From an uncultured Clostridia bacterium (lineage in GTDB: Bacteria; Bacillota; Clostridia; Oscillospirales; CAG-272), in NCBI GenBank assembly GCA_905235755.1, contig CAJONA010000005.1, positions 1-30,508 of the forward strand: DNA of 30,508 nucleotides, in the 5' to 3' direction. Position numbers and translations under genes: made by a program. Each line of letters starts with the position of its first letter. The first letter of the stretch is position 1. The notes under the pieces were generated by a model that saw nothing but the letters and a program-made list of their open reading frames with translations, was not told the origin of the DNA and made no database searches. Shown piece by piece: positions 19,591 through 28,305 of the stretch.

Positions 19591-19613
19591 AAAACGGATT
19601 TGTGACACGTAAA

Positions 19614-19650
19614 AAGGCGGGTAGTACGTTTACACTATCCGCCTTATCTT
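19614..19650 (+). terminator. Intrinsic terminator
   Basis: AAGGCGGGTAGT-ACGTTTAC-ACTATCCGCCTT followed by ATCTTT. Confidence 0.7.
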
Positions 19651-19767
19651 TGACGCCGTTAAACCGCGTTATCAAGCCAAAAATGCAGTTTTACGGCCTT
19701 TTTCATATCCGTTTTTTACCTAAAATAGAGATGTCTGAAATGTAATAAAAAATTTTTTGTACGCCTA

Positions 19768-19818
19768 TTGACAACCGAACGTTTGTTTGATATAATGAAT
19801 ATTGAAAACAAATGTTCT
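19768..19818 (+). promoter_or_regulatory. SigmaA promoter with two LexA (SOS)-box-like sites
   Basis: TTGACA(19768)-17 bp-TATAAT(19791); CGAACGTTTGTTTG at 19776-19789 and AAAACAAATGTTCT at 19805-19818 versus Firmicute consensus CGAACRNRYGTTCG. Confidence 0.7.
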
Positions 19819-19895
19819 TATTTGTTCGGCGGTACAAACTGATCTTTGAAAAAGTAAATAAAGATGATGATAAATATTGAAGGATATTTTCAGCA

Positions 19896-19945
19896 AGCCG
19901 CCGACATGAAAATAAAAAACTGATTTTTTGTCGGCGGCTGTTTTT
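19896..19945 (+). terminator. Intrinsic terminator ~140 nt downstream of the SOS-box promoter
   Basis: Perfect 11-bp stem AGCCGCCGACA/TGTCGGCGGCT followed by GTTTTT. Confidence 0.75.
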
Positions 19946-20526
19946 ATGAAAAACTATTTCAAATAAAAAATATCAAAGACATAGGAACATTTTAAGTTTT
20001 CCGTGTTGGTACATATAAGGAGGTGATGCAGATTTTTGACAACTTAATGATCTGCCGATGAGATACACATACATAAGATTCTGCGATGACAGCAAGAGCG
20101 ATCTTGTGCCGAGGAGAAAGGCGAGCAATTGCCCTCAATCGAGGACGGGTAAGCGGATATCCGTATGTAATACATGGTCGATACGAGCGTAGGAACGGCA
20201 TCGGGTAAACAGGCAAAAACAAAACGGATGTGATACGGAGTGTTGAACTTTCTCTCATCATAAAATTTTACATCTGAAAAACGCCCTAAAGGAGGTTGTG
20301 GACTACCCCTTTGTTCACAGTGGACACACAAAGTTAACATATCAAATTAAATATACAATTGAAGAAAGAAAGGTATATAAAGTATATAAAGGTGACATAG
20401 GCGAATCGATTTTTCTTTCCCAATTGTATTCAGGTGATGAACGTGACGTATAAAACACGGCGCAGATATCCTTTCGCTCCTTGCGACCCTCGCGTTCCTG
20501 AATGGCACAAAATCAACCGATTTTAA

Positions 20527-20634
20527 GGGGACCCCGCAAAGTCGAATGACTTTGTGGGGAGAGGAGGAAGAACGGTGGGAGCGTAATTTCGCGCTCGCGC
20601 GGAATGAGCAAGTCACACGTTGCTTCCGACGACG
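20527..20634. repeat. Hairpin-rich element resembling a Clostridiales interspersed repeat
   Basis: CCCCGCAAAGTC-GAAT-GACTTTGTGGGG hairpin followed by AGAGGAGGAAGAACGG...GAGCG...CGACGACG. Matches a repeat pattern I recall from Oscillospiraceae-type genomes; only one copy in this window. Confidence 0.55.
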
Positions 20635-20686
20635 TGGCAAGCATAGCGCGAGGACGTCCTCGCACAAATTGTCGGGCAGAAGCCCG
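20635..20686 (-). other. oriT of the MOBP module
   Basis: Minus strand: perfect 16-bp palindrome GCGAGGACGTCCTCGC (20648-20663) followed by GCTATGCTTGCCA, matching the pC221-type nic core TGCTTG^CCA; second IR CGGGC-AGAA-GCCCG; upstream of mobC. Confidence 0.75.
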
Positions 20687-20771
20687 CACCCACTTACCTT
20701 TCTTTGAAAAGAAAGTGTAAGCCAAAGAAACTTCAAATAAAAAAGTTAAATTAAAAATCAAGGAGAAAAAA

Positions 20772-21086
20772 TTGAGCAGAAAGCAAACAGAAACAATAAC
20801 CATTCGGCTGACAAAAGAAGAAAAACTTGCACTTGAAAAGAAAATGTACGACGCGCTGTCCCCGTCGATGCGTCGGTTCATTCTCGATATGTGTATGACG
20901 GGAAAGGTCATCGTAAACGAAGATTTAAGAGCGGTAAACCGAGAACTCAAATATCAGGGGAATAACTTAAATCAGCTTGTTCACCTTGCACACGAAGGAC
21001 GCGTACGAGTGATAAATCTATCGGAAACGCTTTCCGTTTACCAAAAAACACTTATGGCAATGGAGAAACAAAATGGCGATAGTTGA
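20772..21086 (+). CDS. mobC: Relaxosome accessory protein MobC
   Basis: RHH N-terminus (TITIRLTKEEK) and ELKYQGNNLNQLVH motif; overlaps the relaxase start; TTG start after AAGGAG. Confidence 0.88.
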   Translation: MSRKQTETITIRLTKEEKLALEKKMYDALSPSMRRFILDMCMTGKVIVNEDLRAVNRELKYQGNNLNQLVHLAHEGRVRVINLSETLSVYQKTLMAMEKQNGDS

Positions 21087-22350
21087 AAGCATACCCGAAA
21101 GAAATCAATCTCCGTCGGTGCAAAACTCCGTGATAAACTACTGTTGCCGCGCCAATAAGACTTCACTCGACGAGCACACCGTCTACGTTTCGGGAGTGAA
21201 TTGTGTTCCCGAACTTGCACAGCAGTCTTTCCTTTCCACGCAGAAACTTTACGGGCATAAGTCCGGTACGCCGAGATTTTATCAGTACATACAATCGTTT
21301 CACCCGAACGAAAAAGTGTCGCCCGATATGGTACATAAGATAGGACTCGAACTCGCAAAGGCATTCGGAAACAGAGAAATCGTTGTCGCAACGCATATCG
21401 ACCGCGAGCATCTTCACAATCATTTTGTCGTCAACAGTTACGATATCGAAACAGGAAAGAAACTTCATTCAAACAAATTCTTTCTCGCAGGACTTCGTGA
21501 AAAGAGCGATGAGATATGTATGAAATACGGGCTGTCGGTGCTGGAAAAGTACGATCCGAATAAGAAGTCCACCCGTCCGAACTCAAAGGAATACCGCGCG
21601 GCGCTCGGCGGCAGCAGTTGGAAGATAAAGACGTGTATCGACATAGATGATTGTATGAGATACGCCGTATCGAAAGATATGTTCGTCGAACTCATGTGCG
21701 AGCGTGGATATGAAATAACGTGGACGGATACAAGAAAGAACATTACGTTTATCAAAGATAACCGTCGAGTACGGGACAATAATCTGCACGATGAAAAATA
21801 CTTAAAGGAGAATATAGAAAATGAACTCAAAATCAGAGAGCAATTATTTGGATATGCTCAAAGCGAAGAACAGACCGAAAGCACCGATAAGCGAGGAAGA
21901 TATGGAAAGGTTATCGGATATAATATCACGACTGGAAGATATGACAGAGGAGATGAAAACAGCGGCAGACGCGCAGATACAGGCGGCAAAAACGTCGATA
22001 GAGCTGATAACCGAGAAAAGCATCGAACGGGTTGGGAGAGCGAGCGCGCTCGGCTCATTTCGGGTGAAAATAAGGGATATGCTCGACGATATTCTGTGGA
22101 TACTGCGTCTCATCGCTATGGCGACGCCGACGGTTCTCGTGCTGGCGCTGTGGGCTTATGTCGGCTTGCGGTAAACGCCGCGTCGATGTTCGATAATGGC
22201 GATGAAACCGAGCAAGAGCGAAAGGAGCGCGAGGCTCGAAACGCCGGAGCATTACTCGGCACGGCGATAGGTCTTGTCGCCGGCGCGGTGATAGCCGCGA
22301 ACGAAAACGATGATGTCGGAGAAAACGACTCTCCGATACAGACCATGTAA
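21073..22350 (+). CDS. MOBP-type relaxase/mobilisation nuclease
   Basis: Motif I INY, motif II QYIQSFHPNE, motif III HIDREHLHNHFVVNS. Confidence 0.92.
   Translation: MAIVESIPERNQSPSVQNSVINYCCRANKTSLDEHTVYVSGVNCVPELAQQSFLSTQKLYGHKSGTPRFYQYIQSFHPNEKVSPDMVHKIGLELAKAFGNREIVVATHIDREHLHNHFVVNSYDIETGKKLHSNKFFLAGLREKSDEICMKYGLSVLEKYDPNKKSTRPNSKEYRAALGGSSWKIKTCIDIDDCMRYAVSKDMFVELMCERGYEITWTDTRKNITFIKDNRRVRDNNLHDEKYLKENIENELKIREQLFGYAQSEEQTESTDKRGRYGKVIGYNITTGRYDRGDENSGRRADTGGKNVDRADNREKHRTGWESERARLISGENKGYARRYSVDTASHRYGDADGSRAGAVGLCRLAVNAASMFDNGDETEQERKEREARNAGALLGTAIGLVAGAVIAANENDDVGENDSPIQTM
21821..22174 (+). CDS. Overprinted 117-aa coiled-coil protein with C-terminal membrane segment inside the relaxase gene (+1 frame)
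   Basis: AAAGGAG 10 nt before ATG; helical charged N-terminus; hydrophobic tail ILWILRLIAMATPTVLVLALWAYVGLR. Confidence 0.55.
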   Translation: MNSKSESNYLDMLKAKNRPKAPISEEDMERLSDIISRLEDMTEEMKTAADAQIQAAKTSIELITEKSIERVGRASALGSFRVKIRDMLDDILWILRLIAMATPTVLVLALWAYVGLR

Positions 22351-22470: not shown

Positions 22471-22698
22471 GTGGCGAAAGAAAACAAACCGAAAATAGAT
22501 TCAGTGTCATACATATATGCGGGGACGAATAAAGAATTTGATTCTTTTCTGAAATCCGTTATCAAGGACTATATATCCGACGATAAGACCGTGCCGGATA
22601 AAAAACAAGAAAAACAGAACGTTGGGAGGAAAACAAAATGCGAGTATGGCTGTATTACCGACTGTCAAGAGATGAGGATAAAGAACTCAATTCAATGA
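22471..22698 (+). CDS. Small protein preceding the serine recombinase (possible directionality factor)
   Basis: AAGAAAGGA RBS, GTG start (MAKENKPKIDSVSYIYAGTNKEFDSFLKSVIKDYIS...); overlaps recombinase start. Confidence 0.6.
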   Translation: MAKENKPKIDSVSYIYAGTNKEFDSFLKSVIKDYISDDKTVPDKKQEKQNVGRKTKCEYGCITDCQEMRIKNSIQ

Positions 22699-24305
22699 CA
22701 AACCAAAAGAAAATCCTTGTCGAGTACGCCGAGAGTCGCGGCTATACGATAATCGGAGAATCGTTCGACGACAACGTGAGCGGTATGCATTTCAACCGCG
22801 AGGGGATAGAAAAAATACAGGACGAGGTAGAAAAGAGGACAATAGACGCCGTCATCGTAAAAGACCTATCGCGTCTCGGCAGACACAAGACGCAGACGGC
22901 AATGTTCATCGACTATCTGCGCGAGAATGACGTCAAGGTATTGTCGGTCACGGAAAACATAGATACAAGCAATGAGGACGACGAATTGCTCGTCGGCTTC
23001 AAAGGGATTTTCAACGATATGTACTGCCGTGATATATCAAAGAAAATACGCGCGGGATATAAACAAAAACAGCGAGAAGGTATCGTTCTTATCCCGCCTA
23101 TGGGGTATTTCAAAGATAAGAACACGGGAGAGGTGGTGATCGTCGAAGAACAAGCGGAAATCGTTCGAAAAATATTCAATCTTTATCTGTCGGGATACGG
23201 TCTCAAAACAATAGCGAGAATGCTCAATGGGGAGGGCATAAAATCGCAAGGGTACTATCAACTCAAAACGCTCGGCAAGAGTATCGGAAACAACAAACCC
23301 GAAATAGCGCACCGATTTTTGTGGGAGAATACCGGTGTCAGGCGAGTGCTTCAAAATGAGTTTTACACGGGAACGCTCGTGTGTCACAAGTCATATACGA
23401 ATAAGATAAATCATGTGAGAAAAGAGCTTCCGCCCGAAGAACATTTTCGTCACGAAAATTATGTGCCTGCAATCATATCAAAGGAGATATGGGAGCAGGC
23501 ACAGCTTTTGCTCAAAGACAAGGTAAAGCGCAGCGTGAGAGCGTCATCGGGAAAGCCGTATCACAGATATACGGGACTGCTCGTGTGCGGGGAGTGCGGA
23601 TCGAGTTTTTCATGCAGGATAAGGAGATGGGGCAGTCTCCCCGACCGTATGGAATATGTATGCAACGGTCATCATAGGTACGGCAAGGAGCATTGTTCAT
23701 CGCACAGAATAGACGAAGCCGACCTTGACCGTCTCATATACGATGAACTCAAACGGCTGCGCGACGAAGCCCATGAAAACTATGAAAGCATCGAAAACGA
23801 AGTAAAGCGGTGGCTCTCGCAGAAAAACACCGTTGATAAAAAGATAAAAGATCTTTCGTCCCGCCTTGCCCAAAGGCGCAGCGACCAACAGATGATACTG
23901 CTTGAACGTATAAGAGACCGAGAACACGCTGATATCTATACCGATATGCTGAACAAGTGTGAAAGTGAGATAAAAATTCTTTCATCACAAATTGAGAGTA
24001 TCAAAAACTTCGATGAAACGATAAAAAATCGAAAAGCAGAAATGAAAAACAGTATCGAAATAATGGACAATATAATATTGGACGGCGCAGTAAGCAACGC
24101 AAATCTTCGACTGCTTATCGATAAAATAGTTATACATGAGCATGAGAGAAAACTTGACGTCAGCATACTCATAAAAGCCGATTTCAGACAGCACATCGAC
24201 TTTTACGACGAAAACGGCGAGATAAGCGAAAAGGTATTCGAGTGCGTGGAGCACCCGAGCGAAATAAGCGAGGAATTTATTGATGCGATGATTGCAGGGG
24301 ATTAA
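22638..24305 (+). CDS. Large serine recombinase (integrase)
   Basis: YYRLSRD catalytic Ser, DDNVSG, VKDLSRLGR, recombinase domain (PPMGY), Zn ribbon CGECG...CNGH...C, coiled coil; GGGAGG RBS. Confidence 0.95.
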   Translation: MRVWLYYRLSRDEDKELNSMTNQKKILVEYAESRGYTIIGESFDDNVSGMHFNREGIEKIQDEVEKRTIDAVIVKDLSRLGRHKTQTAMFIDYLRENDVKVLSVTENIDTSNEDDELLVGFKGIFNDMYCRDISKKIRAGYKQKQREGIVLIPPMGYFKDKNTGEVVIVEEQAEIVRKIFNLYLSGYGLKTIARMLNGEGIKSQGYYQLKTLGKSIGNNKPEIAHRFLWENTGVRRVLQNEFYTGTLVCHKSYTNKINHVRKELPPEEHFRHENYVPAIISKEIWEQAQLLLKDKVKRSVRASSGKPYHRYTGLLVCGECGSSFSCRIRRWGSLPDRMEYVCNGHHRYGKEHCSSHRIDEADLDRLIYDELKRLRDEAHENYESIENEVKRWLSQKNTVDKKIKDLSSRLAQRRSDQQMILLERIRDREHADIYTDMLNKCESEIKILSSQIESIKNFDETIKNRKAEMKNSIEIMDNIILDGAVSNANLRLLIDKIVIHEHERKLDVSILIKADFRQHIDFYDENGEISEKVFECVEHPSEISEEFIDAMIAGD

Positions 24306-24734: not shown

Positions 24735-25802
24735 ATGCCTGTATTTAAATTGGGAGAGTTATTCTGCGGTCCGGGCGGTCTGGCTTGGGGTGCGATGAAT
24801 GCAGACATTGGCAATCCGCAATTTAAAATCGTTCATCAGTGGGCGAACGATTATGACCTGGATACTTGCCATACATACATCCGTAATATCTGTCCTCAAA
24901 ATGCGGATAGTGTCATCTGCGGCGATGTAAGAAAACTGGATTTGCAATCATTGCCGGAAATTGATGCGCTTGCTTTCGGGTTTCCATGCAATGACTTTTC
25001 TGTAGTAGGCGAACAAAAAGGGTTTGATGGAAAATTCGGTCCACTGTATACCTACGGTGTCCAAGTCTTGAAAAGTCACAGACCGCAGTGGTTTCTCGCT
25101 GAAAACGTGGGCGGTCTTCGCAGTGCTAACGAAGGAAACGCTTTCAACAAAATCCTTTCCGACATGAAAGCGGCGGGATACCGCGTATACCCGAATCTTT
25201 ATTGCTTTGAAAGATACGGCGTCCCACAGGCCAGGCATCGAGTCATTATTGTTGGCATTCGCGACGACATTCCTTATGAGTTCAAAGTGCCAAGTTACCG
25301 TCCGTATGAAAATGTTGATGTGACTTGTCGGACGTCCATTGAAAATCCGCCGATTCCTTTCAACGCGCCAAACAATGAAGAAACAAAGCAGTCCGCGACT
25401 GTGGTCGAGCGGCTGAAATATATTAAACCCGGGCAAAACGCTTTTAATGCTGATCTTCCGAAAGAATTACAGCTTCATGTTCGCGGGGCGAAAATCAGCC
25501 AAATTTATAAACGGCTTGACCCGGATAAGCCGGCCTATACGGTGACCGGATCAGGCGGTGGAGGCACTCACATTTATCATTGGAGTGAACCGCGAGCTTT
25601 GACGAATCGTGAGCGCGCCAGATTGCAGACTTTCCCGGACAACTATGTTTTTGAAGGATCAAAAGAATCTGTGCGAAAACAAATCGGGATGGCTGTCCCA
25701 TGCCGTGGAGCAAAAATCATTTTTGAGGCAATATTAAAGACATTTGCCGGGATTGAGTACGAGAACATTGAATCTTCTTTGAAAGATGAGGTCGATATAT
25801 GA
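24735..25802 (+). CDS. DNA cytosine-5 methyltransferase, M.BbvI-like (predicted GCWGC)
   Basis: GELFCGPGG, FGFPCND, ENVGG, TVTGSGGGGTHIYHWSEPRALTNRERARLQTFPD and QIGMAVP closely follow M.BbvI as I recall it. Confidence 0.9.
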   Translation: MPVFKLGELFCGPGGLAWGAMNADIGNPQFKIVHQWANDYDLDTCHTYIRNICPQNADSVICGDVRKLDLQSLPEIDALAFGFPCNDFSVVGEQKGFDGKFGPLYTYGVQVLKSHRPQWFLAENVGGLRSANEGNAFNKILSDMKAAGYRVYPNLYCFERYGVPQARHRVIIVGIRDDIPYEFKVPSYRPYENVDVTCRTSIENPPIPFNAPNNEETKQSATVVERLKYIKPGQNAFNADLPKELQLHVRGAKISQIYKRLDPDKPAYTVTGSGGGGTHIYHWSEPRALTNRERARLQTFPDNYVFEGSKESVRKQIGMAVPCRGAKIIFEAILKTFAGIEYENIESSLKDEVDI

Positions 25803-27358
25803 TTAATACATGGTGGGTAACGCGCCCCAAAAGAAAACTGAATTCAATTCCAGAGGTGTTGGCAACCTTTGCGGAAATCTCTTTGGACCAGGAATGGCAA
25901 GGACAACGAGACACACATCTTTCATTAGAAGACGCTTTGGAAGAAGCCGGTCTAAAGCGCAAAGGTGAACGCCGCGATCAGACCGGCGGCGGAGCCAGGA
26001 CCTATCTGGCGTGGATCGTAAGCCTCGGCTTGATTTTTAGGCAAGAATCAACCGGTCAACTGAAACTGACGCTTGCAGGGGAAGCTATTATGAATGGCGA
26101 TTCTCCTGTATCGGTGTTGAAAAATCAAATACTGAAATACCAGTTTCCGTCTTCTTTCTCCGTAGGACGAGGGGTAGATGTTGCTCCTCGCTTCAAAATT
26201 CGCCCGTTCCGTTTTCTGTTGCGGCTCTTAATGGACCCGGCAGTTGGGCATTTGACTGAAGAAGAGATTGCAAAAGTTATTATCACAAATGCCGAAAACG
26301 AAACTGAAGAATGCTATCGTGCTGTTATCAGCAAGTTGGCGGCTTTTCGTTCCGATGGCGACCGCTCGTTAGATGACGATTTCTTTGAAAAATATGCGCC
26401 GAAGACGGGTGCAGTAAACCCTGACCATCCGTTCAGCCATTTGATGGATAACGCGAATACATTTATTAACTGGATTGAATACACACAGCTTGCCAAACGC
26501 AGCGAAGACGACAGAATGCTTCGCATCATTCCCGAAAAAGGCGAAGAAATACGAGCAATTCTTTCTGCAACGCCGGCATTTATTGATCGCCCCAATCAGC
26601 ATGAATACTATCAGCGCAAATACGGTCTTGATCCCAAGCATCAAAAAGATACGCGAAACCTTACGCAGACGCAGACTATAACCGCAAAAATAATTGCCGA
26701 GCAAAAAATCAAACAGGCATTTGTTGTGGAATCTTTAAGAACGCCGATTACCAAGATCACCCCTGATTTGATAGACCGTATCATAGAACAGACCGGATTG
26801 GAGTCGAAATTTGTTGAGGAATCCCTGTTAAAGTTATACCCTCATGGCGCAATAGGCTCTTTTATGACAGAATACTTTGAAATGGCATTCAAGGGACGCG
26901 ACGAAGCTACAGATTTTGAAAAAGCGACGGTTAAACTGTTCCGCGAAGTGTTCGGTTTTGAAACTCATCATGTCGGTCCGATCGGATTGACACCGGACGT
27001 TTTGCTGTTGTCCGATACGGATGGCTTTGCCGGAATTATTGACAATAAAGCATACAGCAAATATACCATCAGCAACGACCATCATAACCGAATGGTGCAT
27101 AACTATATCGAAGGGTTCCATAATTATTCCGCTTCGGACAAGCCTTTGGCATTTTTCTCTTATATCGCAGGCGGATTTGGAACAAACATTGACGGGCAAC
27201 TAATGCGTATTGTCAGCGAAACCGGCGTAAACGGAAGCGCTGCTACGGTTTCTCATATCATACAAATGGTTGAGAGACAGCAGACAAATCCCTACTCACA
27301 CACGCAGATCAAAAACCTGTTTTCTGTGAACCGTCAGTTGAAAATTACAGATTTGTAA
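25799..27358 (+). CDS. Type IIS restriction endonuclease, AlwI-family N-terminus with FokI-like PD-(D/E)xK cleavage domain
   Basis: TPDVLLLSDTDGFAGIIDNKAYSKYTISNDHHNRMVHNYI parallels FokI KPDG...IVDTKAYS...QADEMQRYV; sits between two m5C MTases. Confidence 0.85.
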   Translation: MINTWWVTRPKRKLNSIPEVLATFAEISLDQEWQGQRDTHLSLEDALEEAGLKRKGERRDQTGGGARTYLAWIVSLGLIFRQESTGQLKLTLAGEAIMNGDSPVSVLKNQILKYQFPSSFSVGRGVDVAPRFKIRPFRFLLRLLMDPAVGHLTEEEIAKVIITNAENETEECYRAVISKLAAFRSDGDRSLDDDFFEKYAPKTGAVNPDHPFSHLMDNANTFINWIEYTQLAKRSEDDRMLRIIPEKGEEIRAILSATPAFIDRPNQHEYYQRKYGLDPKHQKDTRNLTQTQTITAKIIAEQKIKQAFVVESLRTPITKITPDLIDRIIEQTGLESKFVEESLLKLYPHGAIGSFMTEYFEMAFKGRDEATDFEKATVKLFREVFGFETHHVGPIGLTPDVLLLSDTDGFAGIIDNKAYSKYTISNDHHNRMVHNYIEGFHNYSASDKPLAFFSYIAGGFGTNIDGQLMRIVSETGVNGSAATVSHIIQMVERQQTNPYSHTQIKNLFSVNRQLKITDL

Positions 27359-27360
27359 AT

Positions 27361-28305
27361 ATGACCAGACATACAGTTGGCAGTCTTTTTGCCGGCATTG
27401 GCGGCATCTGCCTTGGCTTCAAGCAAGCAGGATTTGATATCGTTTGGGCGAACGAATATGATGCCGCCGCTTGTAAAACGTACAGGCGGAATTTCGGAGA
27501 CTCCTATTTAGTGGAATCCGATATTCGAAAGGTTAAGGTCGAATCAATCCCCGATTTTGATGTATTGACCGCAGGTTTTCCGTGTCAGCCGTTTTCTGTC
27601 GCCGGAAAGCAAAGAGGATTTAACGATAAGCGCGGCAATCTGTTCTTTGAGATCACGCGAATCATTGATGCCAAACGACCCAAAGTCATCTTCCTTGAAA
27701 ATGTTGCCAATTTGATGGAGCATGATGAAGGACGAACGTTTCTTGTCATCTTCAATTCATTGGCCCAATTTGGATATACGGTTTACTATAAGGTCATGGC
27801 GGCAAATGAATATGGGAATCTGCCGCAGATTCGGAAGCGTATTTATATCACCGCTATCCGTGATGATTTGTGCATTAATTATAAGCATCCAGAACCGATT
27901 GAATTGACGCTGAAATCAACAGACATTATTCATCGGACCGAGCGACAAAATGATATTTACTACTATAACGGCACCGAACTGTTTTCATATTTTGATAGCC
28001 GGATGAAAGATAGACTCGCCATATACCGCCCAACCGACACGGAAGTTCGGTGGACAAAAAATCAAATGTGTCCGACGCTTACGGCAAATATGGGAACTTA
28101 CCCAAATCGGGTTCCTGTTGTTTGGGACGATTTCGGCATACGGAAACTCACACTCCGCGAGTGCTTGGATTTTCAAGGATTCCAGAAGGAGTATTATTTT
28201 CCGAATACGGTTTCAATGGACGATGCTTATAAACAAATCGGCAATTCCGTTTGTGTGCCTGTAATCCGGCGGATTGCGGAACAGGTCAGACTTGCCTTAG
28301 GGTGA
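27361..28305 (+). CDS. Second DNA cytosine-5 methyltransferase, M.Bsp6I-like scaffold with altered target-recognition region
   Basis: SLFAGIGG, GFPCQPFS, ENV, CPTLTANMGTYPNRVP, RKLTLREC, YKQIGNSVCVPVI. Confidence 0.9.
   Translation: MTRHTVGSLFAGIGGICLGFKQAGFDIVWANEYDAAACKTYRRNFGDSYLVESDIRKVKVESIPDFDVLTAGFPCQPFSVAGKQRGFNDKRGNLFFEITRIIDAKRPKVIFLENVANLMEHDEGRTFLVIFNSLAQFGYTVYYKVMAANEYGNLPQIRKRIYITAIRDDLCINYKHPEPIELTLKSTDIIHRTERQNDIYYYNGTELFSYFDSRMKDRLAIYRPTDTEVRWTKNQMCPTLTANMGTYPNRVPVVWDDFGIRKLTLRECLDFQGFQKEYYFPNTVSMDDAYKQIGNSVCVPVIRRIAEQVRLALG

Follow-up and report, generated by a model that had tools for sequence, protein, structure and literature searches.

Overlap between mobB and the relaxase gene mobA is a long-known arrangement of Gram-positive and IncQ plasmids. 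The mobCAB module is the mobilisation system of pC221 and pSK639 (PMC4993578), and the mobA, mobB and mobC genes of such modules are described as "in part overlapping" (PMC6157413). In RSF1010, mobB also overlaps mobA (PMC5572225). The small genes mbeB and mbeD of ColE1 lie in a second frame inside mbeA, whose product is a relaxase of the same Pfam superfamily as the one studied here. As for function, MobB of R1162 was reportedly found by Parker and Meyer in 2007 to be membrane-associated and to aid type IV transport of the relaxase. The locus analysed here repeats the mobA/mobB layout with a new sequence family that is fully nested in the relaxase gene. Neither the family nor its full nesting in mobilisable elements of Clostridia is described in the literature that we searched.

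The window, the whole stretch of 30,508 nucleotides that was analysed, is one entire contig of a 1.54-Mb metagenome-assembled genome. It carries an accessory gene, a relaxase gene and a large serine recombinase gene in this order (Table 1), and is thus laid out like an integrative mobilisable element. The serine recombinase is likely the integrase of the mobilisable element that bears the mob module. Upstream of the accessory gene lies a stretch of ~1.1 kb with few ORFs (19600-20770). An extended sigma-70 promoter is matched perfectly on its + strand (19768-19796), and among its several hairpins is one with 12-nt arms (20532-20559) that could be part of an oriT. On the other side, the ORF adjoining the recombinase gene (24735-25802) encodes the motifs FPCNDFS and AENV, as is usual for DNA cytosine-5 methyltransferases, and is followed by more long ORFs (25799-28305), possibly a restriction-modification cargo of the element. 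Matches to group II intron domains are found near the contig end (29926-30221, + strand; Rfam RF02001 at 147.7 bits and RF01998 at 49.6 bits).

Table 1. Features of the mobilisation module and the nested gene (window coordinates)
Feature	Position	Strand	Basis and remarks
NikA/MobC-type ribbon-helix-helix accessory gene	20772..21086	+	PF21983 5e-14; PF05713 weak; overlaps relaxase start
Relaxase gene, MobA/VirD2-type, 425 codons	21073..22350	+	PF03432 at residues 25-154
Shine-Dalgarno sequence AAAGGAG of nested gene	21805..21811	+	9 nt before ATG
Nested mobB-like gene, 117 codons plus stop, ATG start	21821..22174	+	+1 frame of relaxase gene
N-terminal motif MNSxSxxxYxDxLKxKN of nested protein	21821..21871	+	Family alignments; L13 and N17 nearly invariant
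Doubly constrained patch	22027..22047	+	Relaxase TGWESER; in +1 frame (Q/R)(V/A)G(K/R)(A/S)
Predicted C-terminal transmembrane tail, nested residues 91-116	22091..22168	+	Hydrophobicity, helical model
Conserved C-terminal tail of relaxase, residues 368-425	22175..22350	+	Frame 0 only; invariant E378, E380, E382, E387, G392, G396
Large serine recombinase gene	22638..24305	+	PF00239, PF07508, PF13408

The nested ORF begins 748 nt into the relaxase gene, which places it in the +1 frame, and spans relaxase codons 250-367. Its ATG is formed from the relaxase codons N250-E251 (AAT-GAA), and its Shine-Dalgarno (SD) sequence corresponds to codons K245-E246 within the invariant KYLKEN motif. The initial annotation, which had described an ORF of this length and frame with a ribosome-binding site of its own, is confirmed in this respect. 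The arrangement AGGAG-N6-10-ATG occurs eight times in the window, compared to 2.8 expected, and five of the seven other matches stand at the starts of long ORFs, which shows that this SD signal is meaningful in the host genome. A consensus scan of the + strand found no internal promoter before the nested start, and the relaxase mRNA thus probably serves for the nested gene as well.

The openness of the +1 frame in the window alone is weak evidence, as it is unusual only at P of about 0.02-0.06; the hydrophilic linker encoded in the relaxase frame has few T at codon position 2. Synonymous-codon shuffling of the window relaxase gene gave a mean longest stop-free +1 run of 80 codons, with P(run>=118)=0.06 and P(ORF>=117)=0.02. 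Given the relaxase protein, the openness is also non-significant in most of the homologous loci (P 0.05-0.5; mean longest runs of 80-190 codons). The shuffling tests have little power here and were not counted as support. Such figures are what would be expected if the ORF were a by-product of composition, that is, a purine-rich stretch encoding a hydrophilic linker, with a +1 frame that is open by chance and has no functional product. We give this explanation almost no credence in view of the comparisons described below, which, rather than the openness in the window, are the decisive evidence for the nested gene.

A total of 80 homologous loci were gathered from Clostridia genomes, in addition to 12 from relatives. 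Full-length homologues of the relaxase are numerous, at 44-49% identity. The analysis covered 57 distinct relatives with a complete gene, of 34-50% relaxase identity, which together with the window make 58 unique loci. No interrupting stops were seen: the +1 frame is open in every homologue examined. All 58 loci have a start codon at the same site, which is ATG in 54 of them, including the window, and GTG in the other four. The relaxase residue at this site varies (N/H/Y/R/D), whereas the third base of its codon is always T; elsewhere in these relaxase genes, only 47% of the NAY codons end in T. The SD sequence (AAGGAG, AAGAGG or AAAGGA) is likewise kept at the DNA level in 58/58 loci, and is retained even where the relaxase residues change from KEN to KGV (KE to KG, N to V). 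By comparison, the K-E dicodon elsewhere in the N-terminal domains of the same relaxase genes reads AAGGAG in only 12 of 83 cases (14%). Across the family, the SD sequence and the start are separated by 9-10 nt. The conservation of the ribosome-binding site, a check proposed in the initial annotation, is thus seen at the nucleotide level, and suggests a conserved translation start proper to the nested gene. Both the start codon that is conserved across changing relaxase residues and the SD sequence that is kept in the DNA argue against a by-product of composition.

The same start signal bears on a second alternative, in which the +1 frame would be reached mainly by programmed +1 frameshifting, giving a form of the relaxase that ends in a coiled coil and a membrane anchor, in place of a free small protein. 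An SD-like element within a coding region can stimulate +1 shifts, as in prfB, which is a precedent for SD-stimulated +1 frameshifting. In addition, natural fused forms exist. In two proteins of 425 residues, P0141 and P0298, the relaxase N-terminal domain runs on in frame into the +1 product. P0298 occurs on 38 contigs of up to 38 kb. Such proteins represent either a functional fusion or a frameshift variant that is spreading. However, their joint lies about 20 codons past the nested start, which fits a simple indel, and no conserved slippery site was noticed. The ATG or GTG is conserved at the spacing from the SD sequence that is used for initiation, the conserved N-terminal motif of the nested protein begins exactly at the nested ATG, and the same start in plasmid relatives serves a gene that is recognised as separate. 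We therefore regard frameshifting as the main route to the +1 frame as very improbable.

The +1 products of the homologous loci are 117-191 residues long, can be aligned with one another, and all end in a hydrophobic helix. One of the loci, L080, comes from a cultured carrier, Acutalibacter sp. 1XD8-33, where the +1 ORF has 154 codons. They share the N-terminal motif and the C-terminal helix, in addition to a (Q/R)(V/A)G(K/R) patch in between. To compare the frames, each was aligned separately over the overlap. In three bands of divergence, the identities of the +1 frame, frame 0 and the +2 control were 0.51/0.39/0.37, 0.65/0.53/0.50 and 0.85/0.78/0.74, respectively; the relaxase frame barely exceeds the untranslated control. 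Substitutions in the overlap have their maximum at codon position 3 of the +1 frame, which is relaxase position 1, and their minimum at relaxase position 3. All 25 disjoint nearest pairs show this +1-phased periodicity (sign test p=6e-8), among them equal-length, gap-free pairs where the alignment cannot bias the count. By contrast, the N-terminal domain and the C-terminal tail of the relaxase show frame-0 periodicity, with substitutions peaking at relaxase codon position 3. Summed over the pairs, the substitutions amount to 652/588/1015 in the overlap versus 498/373/1903 in the N-terminal domain. The codon-level constraint, which the initial annotation had listed among its checks, therefore follows the +1 frame. 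An ORF that had arisen from composition alone is hard to reconcile with this periodicity and with a +1 identity above that of frame 0.

A similar pattern is seen at short range in the nearest relative, P0002, which is known as a protein only. Its relaxase has the same length as that of the window and is 89% identical, with 16% of the residues differing in the overlap versus 8.8% in the N-terminal domain. Among the 17 overlap replacements that are explicable by one base change, 15 fall at relaxase codon position 1, as inferred from the protein. Ten of the 17 are silent in the +1 frame, and most of the others are conservative there, such as I/M and D/E.

The relaxase frame was assessed in the reverse direction by synonymous resampling of the +1 protein. 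About 4.2 frame-0 stops would be expected in the overlap, and the median P of an open frame is 0.003; the relaxase frame is nonetheless open in 58/58 loci. As the +1 protein is preserved and frame 0 is kept free of stops, both frames appear to be translated. Judged from these comparisons, the nested ORF is a real gene, and the DNA that it occupies is dual-coding, with its +1 product under purifying selection.

In the relaxase frame, the conserved regions are the N-terminal half, the TGWESER motif and the C-terminal tail. Residues of about 250-367 form the linker that overlaps the nested gene; they are rich in R/G/D/E and, apart from TGWESER, are variable and indel-rich across homologues. The initial annotation had rightly noted low complexity over this span, and the linker seems merely to be kept open. 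TGWESER is the one patch where both proteins are constrained: relaxase T319, G320, W321, E322 and R325 are invariant across homologues, as is G72 in the nested protein, and the Gly codon of the motif is GGT with few exceptions, so that the +1 frame reads Val. The C-terminal tail of the relaxase begins where the nested gene ends, and consists of an acidic E-rich motif, RE(A)RNAG, a hydrophobic stretch of ~20 residues rich in Gly/Ala/Leu, and an acidic end. A membrane segment and a transport signal are both conceivable roles for it.

The nested product is predicted to be tail-anchored, with most of the chain in the cytoplasm. AlphaFold2 prediction with the family alignment gave a short helix (residues 4-16) and a single long helix (residues 25-116) with a mean pLDDT of 80.5; the predicted tail is helical with a pLDDT above 90. 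The maximum Kyte-Doolittle value of the tail over 19 residues is 2.09, compared to 0.65 +/- 0.44 upon synonymous resampling of the relaxase frame (P=0.002), so that its hydrophobicity goes beyond what the relaxase sequence would bring about, a further point against composition. The helical region and hydrophobic tail described in the initial annotation are both borne out, and the tail is found in every family member. All other family members are longer than the window copy, which lacks about 30-40 residues of the helical/coiled-coil body but keeps all conserved features. This shortening could reduce its activity.

The topology also bears on what such a protein would do. A real nested protein might act in entry exclusion or immunity, like MbeD of ColE1, by blocking redundant uptake of the same element. 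It would resemble MbeD in being a small membrane-anchored protein encoded within a relaxase gene, and its sequence evolves fast between clades, as expected of specificity determinants. However, family members have only 0-8 residues past the transmembrane helix, which would leave almost nothing exposed outside a Gram-positive membrane. Moreover, a mobilisable element without a mating channel of its own has little control over entry. Pfam scanning of 27 family members gave no match to MbeB or to MbeD (MbeD_MobD), which are the families that we take to represent these proteins. We consider an exclusion function unlikely.

The closest parallels are found in plasmids. Over its N-terminal half, the window relaxase has matches in 1480 plasmid records, of which seven were looked at. 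Five of the seven have a +1 ORF whose start falls on the corresponding (N/H)-E codons within (Y/F)xK(E/G)xhx(N/H)E(L/F), and four of these five, in two Staphylococcus plasmids, an Enterococcus faecium plasmid and Clostridium botulinum pRSJ2_1, have an SD sequence 9-11 nt before the start. The start in pRSJ2_1 falls on relaxase codon 250, exactly as in the window. The four intact +1 products have 148-230 residues and C-terminal transmembrane helices. In these four plasmids, the relaxase stop lies 209-407 nt into mobB, and mobB continues alone for another 127-424 nt; the same gene thus runs past the end of the relaxase frame, which is a further argument against composition as the source of the ORF. 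The fifth case, C. perfringens p21-D-5b (L095, 2273-2710), shares this ATG, which here lies within a longer ORF that starts with TTG, and shows no evident SD sequence. This ORF has no hydrophobic end, lies just upstream of an IS21 transposase gene and looks truncated.

The plasmid gene at this site is the mobB of mobCAB modules. In a pC221-like plasmid, the full +1 ORF matches PF03904 (DUF334) at 1e-62, and its distal part is annotated in RefSeq as a DUF334 protein. RefSeq places several of the mobB-type starts late, at 2980 for the ORF 2749-3291 of L094, at 2369 for 2201-2647 of L096 and at 2366 for 2129-2821 of L098; the conserved SD sequence and ATG lie 170-240 nt upstream of the RefSeq starts, and the annotation apparently limits overlap with the relaxase gene. 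For the mobB-type ORF 2126-2659 of L093, the gene table lists none.

Compared with staphylococcal mobB (pC221, pSK639 and pKKS49), the nested gene likewise lies in the +1 frame, has its SD sequence and ATG embedded in the same relaxase motif, and encodes a hydrophilic helical body followed by a C-terminal membrane anchor, which in the staphylococcal proteins consists of transmembrane helices. The module also has a MobC/NikA-type gene upstream and a PF03432 relaxase as partner, as in staphylococcal mobCAB. By position, the nested gene can thus be taken as the equivalent of mobB in the mobC-mobA-mobB modules of Gram-positive plasmids. There are differences as well. The nested gene lies wholly inside the relaxase frame, which continues to the conserved tail, whereas the plasmid relatives lack this tail. 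The nested gene resides not on a plasmid but on an integrative mobilisable element that carries a serine recombinase, and the nested family has no detectable sequence similarity to plasmid mobB or DUF334. Alignment of the family profile by hhalign against the staphylococcal, enterococcal and C. botulinum +1 products detected no homology (probability 0.9% for the pC221-like ORF), and PF03904 was matched neither by any of 27 members at E<=0.01 nor by three members at E<=1.

RSF1010/R1162 mobB is similar in being a small accessory gene wholly within the relaxase gene in another frame, its membrane association having a counterpart here that is predicted only; it differs in belonging to a proteobacterial IncQ plasmid with a relaxase fused to a primase. 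ColE1 resembles the locus in the frame usage described above, whereas mbeA holds two nested genes and encodes a HEN-motif relaxase. The comparison with RSF1010 mobB and ColE1 mbeB/mbeD drawn in the initial annotation is apt, as all are overlapping genes in a relaxase gene. Its proposal of a Firmicute analogue holds as regards a real gene, but not as regards novelty of the arrangement, for the +1 gene of pC221-type mobCAB modules, which starts at the same relaxase motif, is a precedent. As no detected sequence similarity links the nested protein to a characterised MobB, MbeB or MbeD, the assignment of its function relies on position and architecture.

These comparisons also bear on the direction of overprinting. 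The initial annotation had viewed the small ORF as overprinted on the relaxase gene; both frames are indeed coding, but the evidence fits better with the relaxase linker as the less constrained and probably younger reading, and the small ORF would then not be a late overprint.

A single-sequence protein search with the 117-residue product gave no match at near lengths, whereas a family-profile search of 1.84 billion representative proteins returned 191 matches at E<=1e-3. The failure of the former is therefore a limit of sensitivity and not an absence of the family. The initial annotation had expected standard annotation to miss the gene. Gene callers do skip or truncate nested genes, but the 191 matches indicate that they at times call this one. 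A single 90% cluster comprises 2291 family members, all of them unnamed. No family in Pfam or NCBIfam matches the nested proteins, and a metagenome scan with the relaxase as query returned no relative. A protein atlas gave only unnamed clusters; Activator-TraM was assigned on 36% of one cluster (score 0.92), a weak match that was not relied on.

We hold it very probable that the locus is dual-coding and that its +1 product is a mobB-like, tail-anchored accessory protein, which most likely tethers the relaxase-oriT complex at the membrane. Ribosomes in the relaxase frame would read the overlap as a poorly constrained hydrophilic linker that connects the N-terminal nuclease half to the conserved C-terminal tail of the relaxase. 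Other ribosomes on the same relaxase mRNA would initiate independently at the internal SD sequence and ATG, yielding the 117-residue +1 protein. Its C-terminal tail would insert into the membrane, and the protein would hold the relaxase-oriT complex there and present it to the coupling protein of a helper conjugative element, working in the manner of RSF1010/R1162 MobB. The nested protein would probably serve the relaxosome as an adaptor or as a tether to the membrane.

A more speculative extension, which we put forward as a rather doubtful possibility, is that the nested protein and the hydrophobic/acidic tail of the relaxase form a two-part membrane-docking device, the tail having been gained by extension of the relaxase frame across a pre-existing mobB. 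If so, one mRNA with an internal start in a relaxase motif would give a fixed stoichiometry of the pair. Such a device would let these integrative mobilisable elements dock to a broad range of unrelated helper coupling proteins, and could account for their very wide spread in gut Clostridia.

Altogether, the analysis adds a real, conserved gene that gene callers skip or shorten because it lies inside another gene. The mobA/mobB overlap with a start embedded in a relaxase motif is common to staphylococcal plasmids and integrative mobilisable elements of uncultured gut Clostridia. The locus is also a clean case of an overlap where constraint is weak on the long "host" frame, which matters for the modelling of relaxase linkers and for the measurement of selection. 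Elements of this kind move cargo among gut bacteria, here a restriction-modification-like module, and the accessory protein is thus a candidate for the factor that decides which helper systems are open to them.
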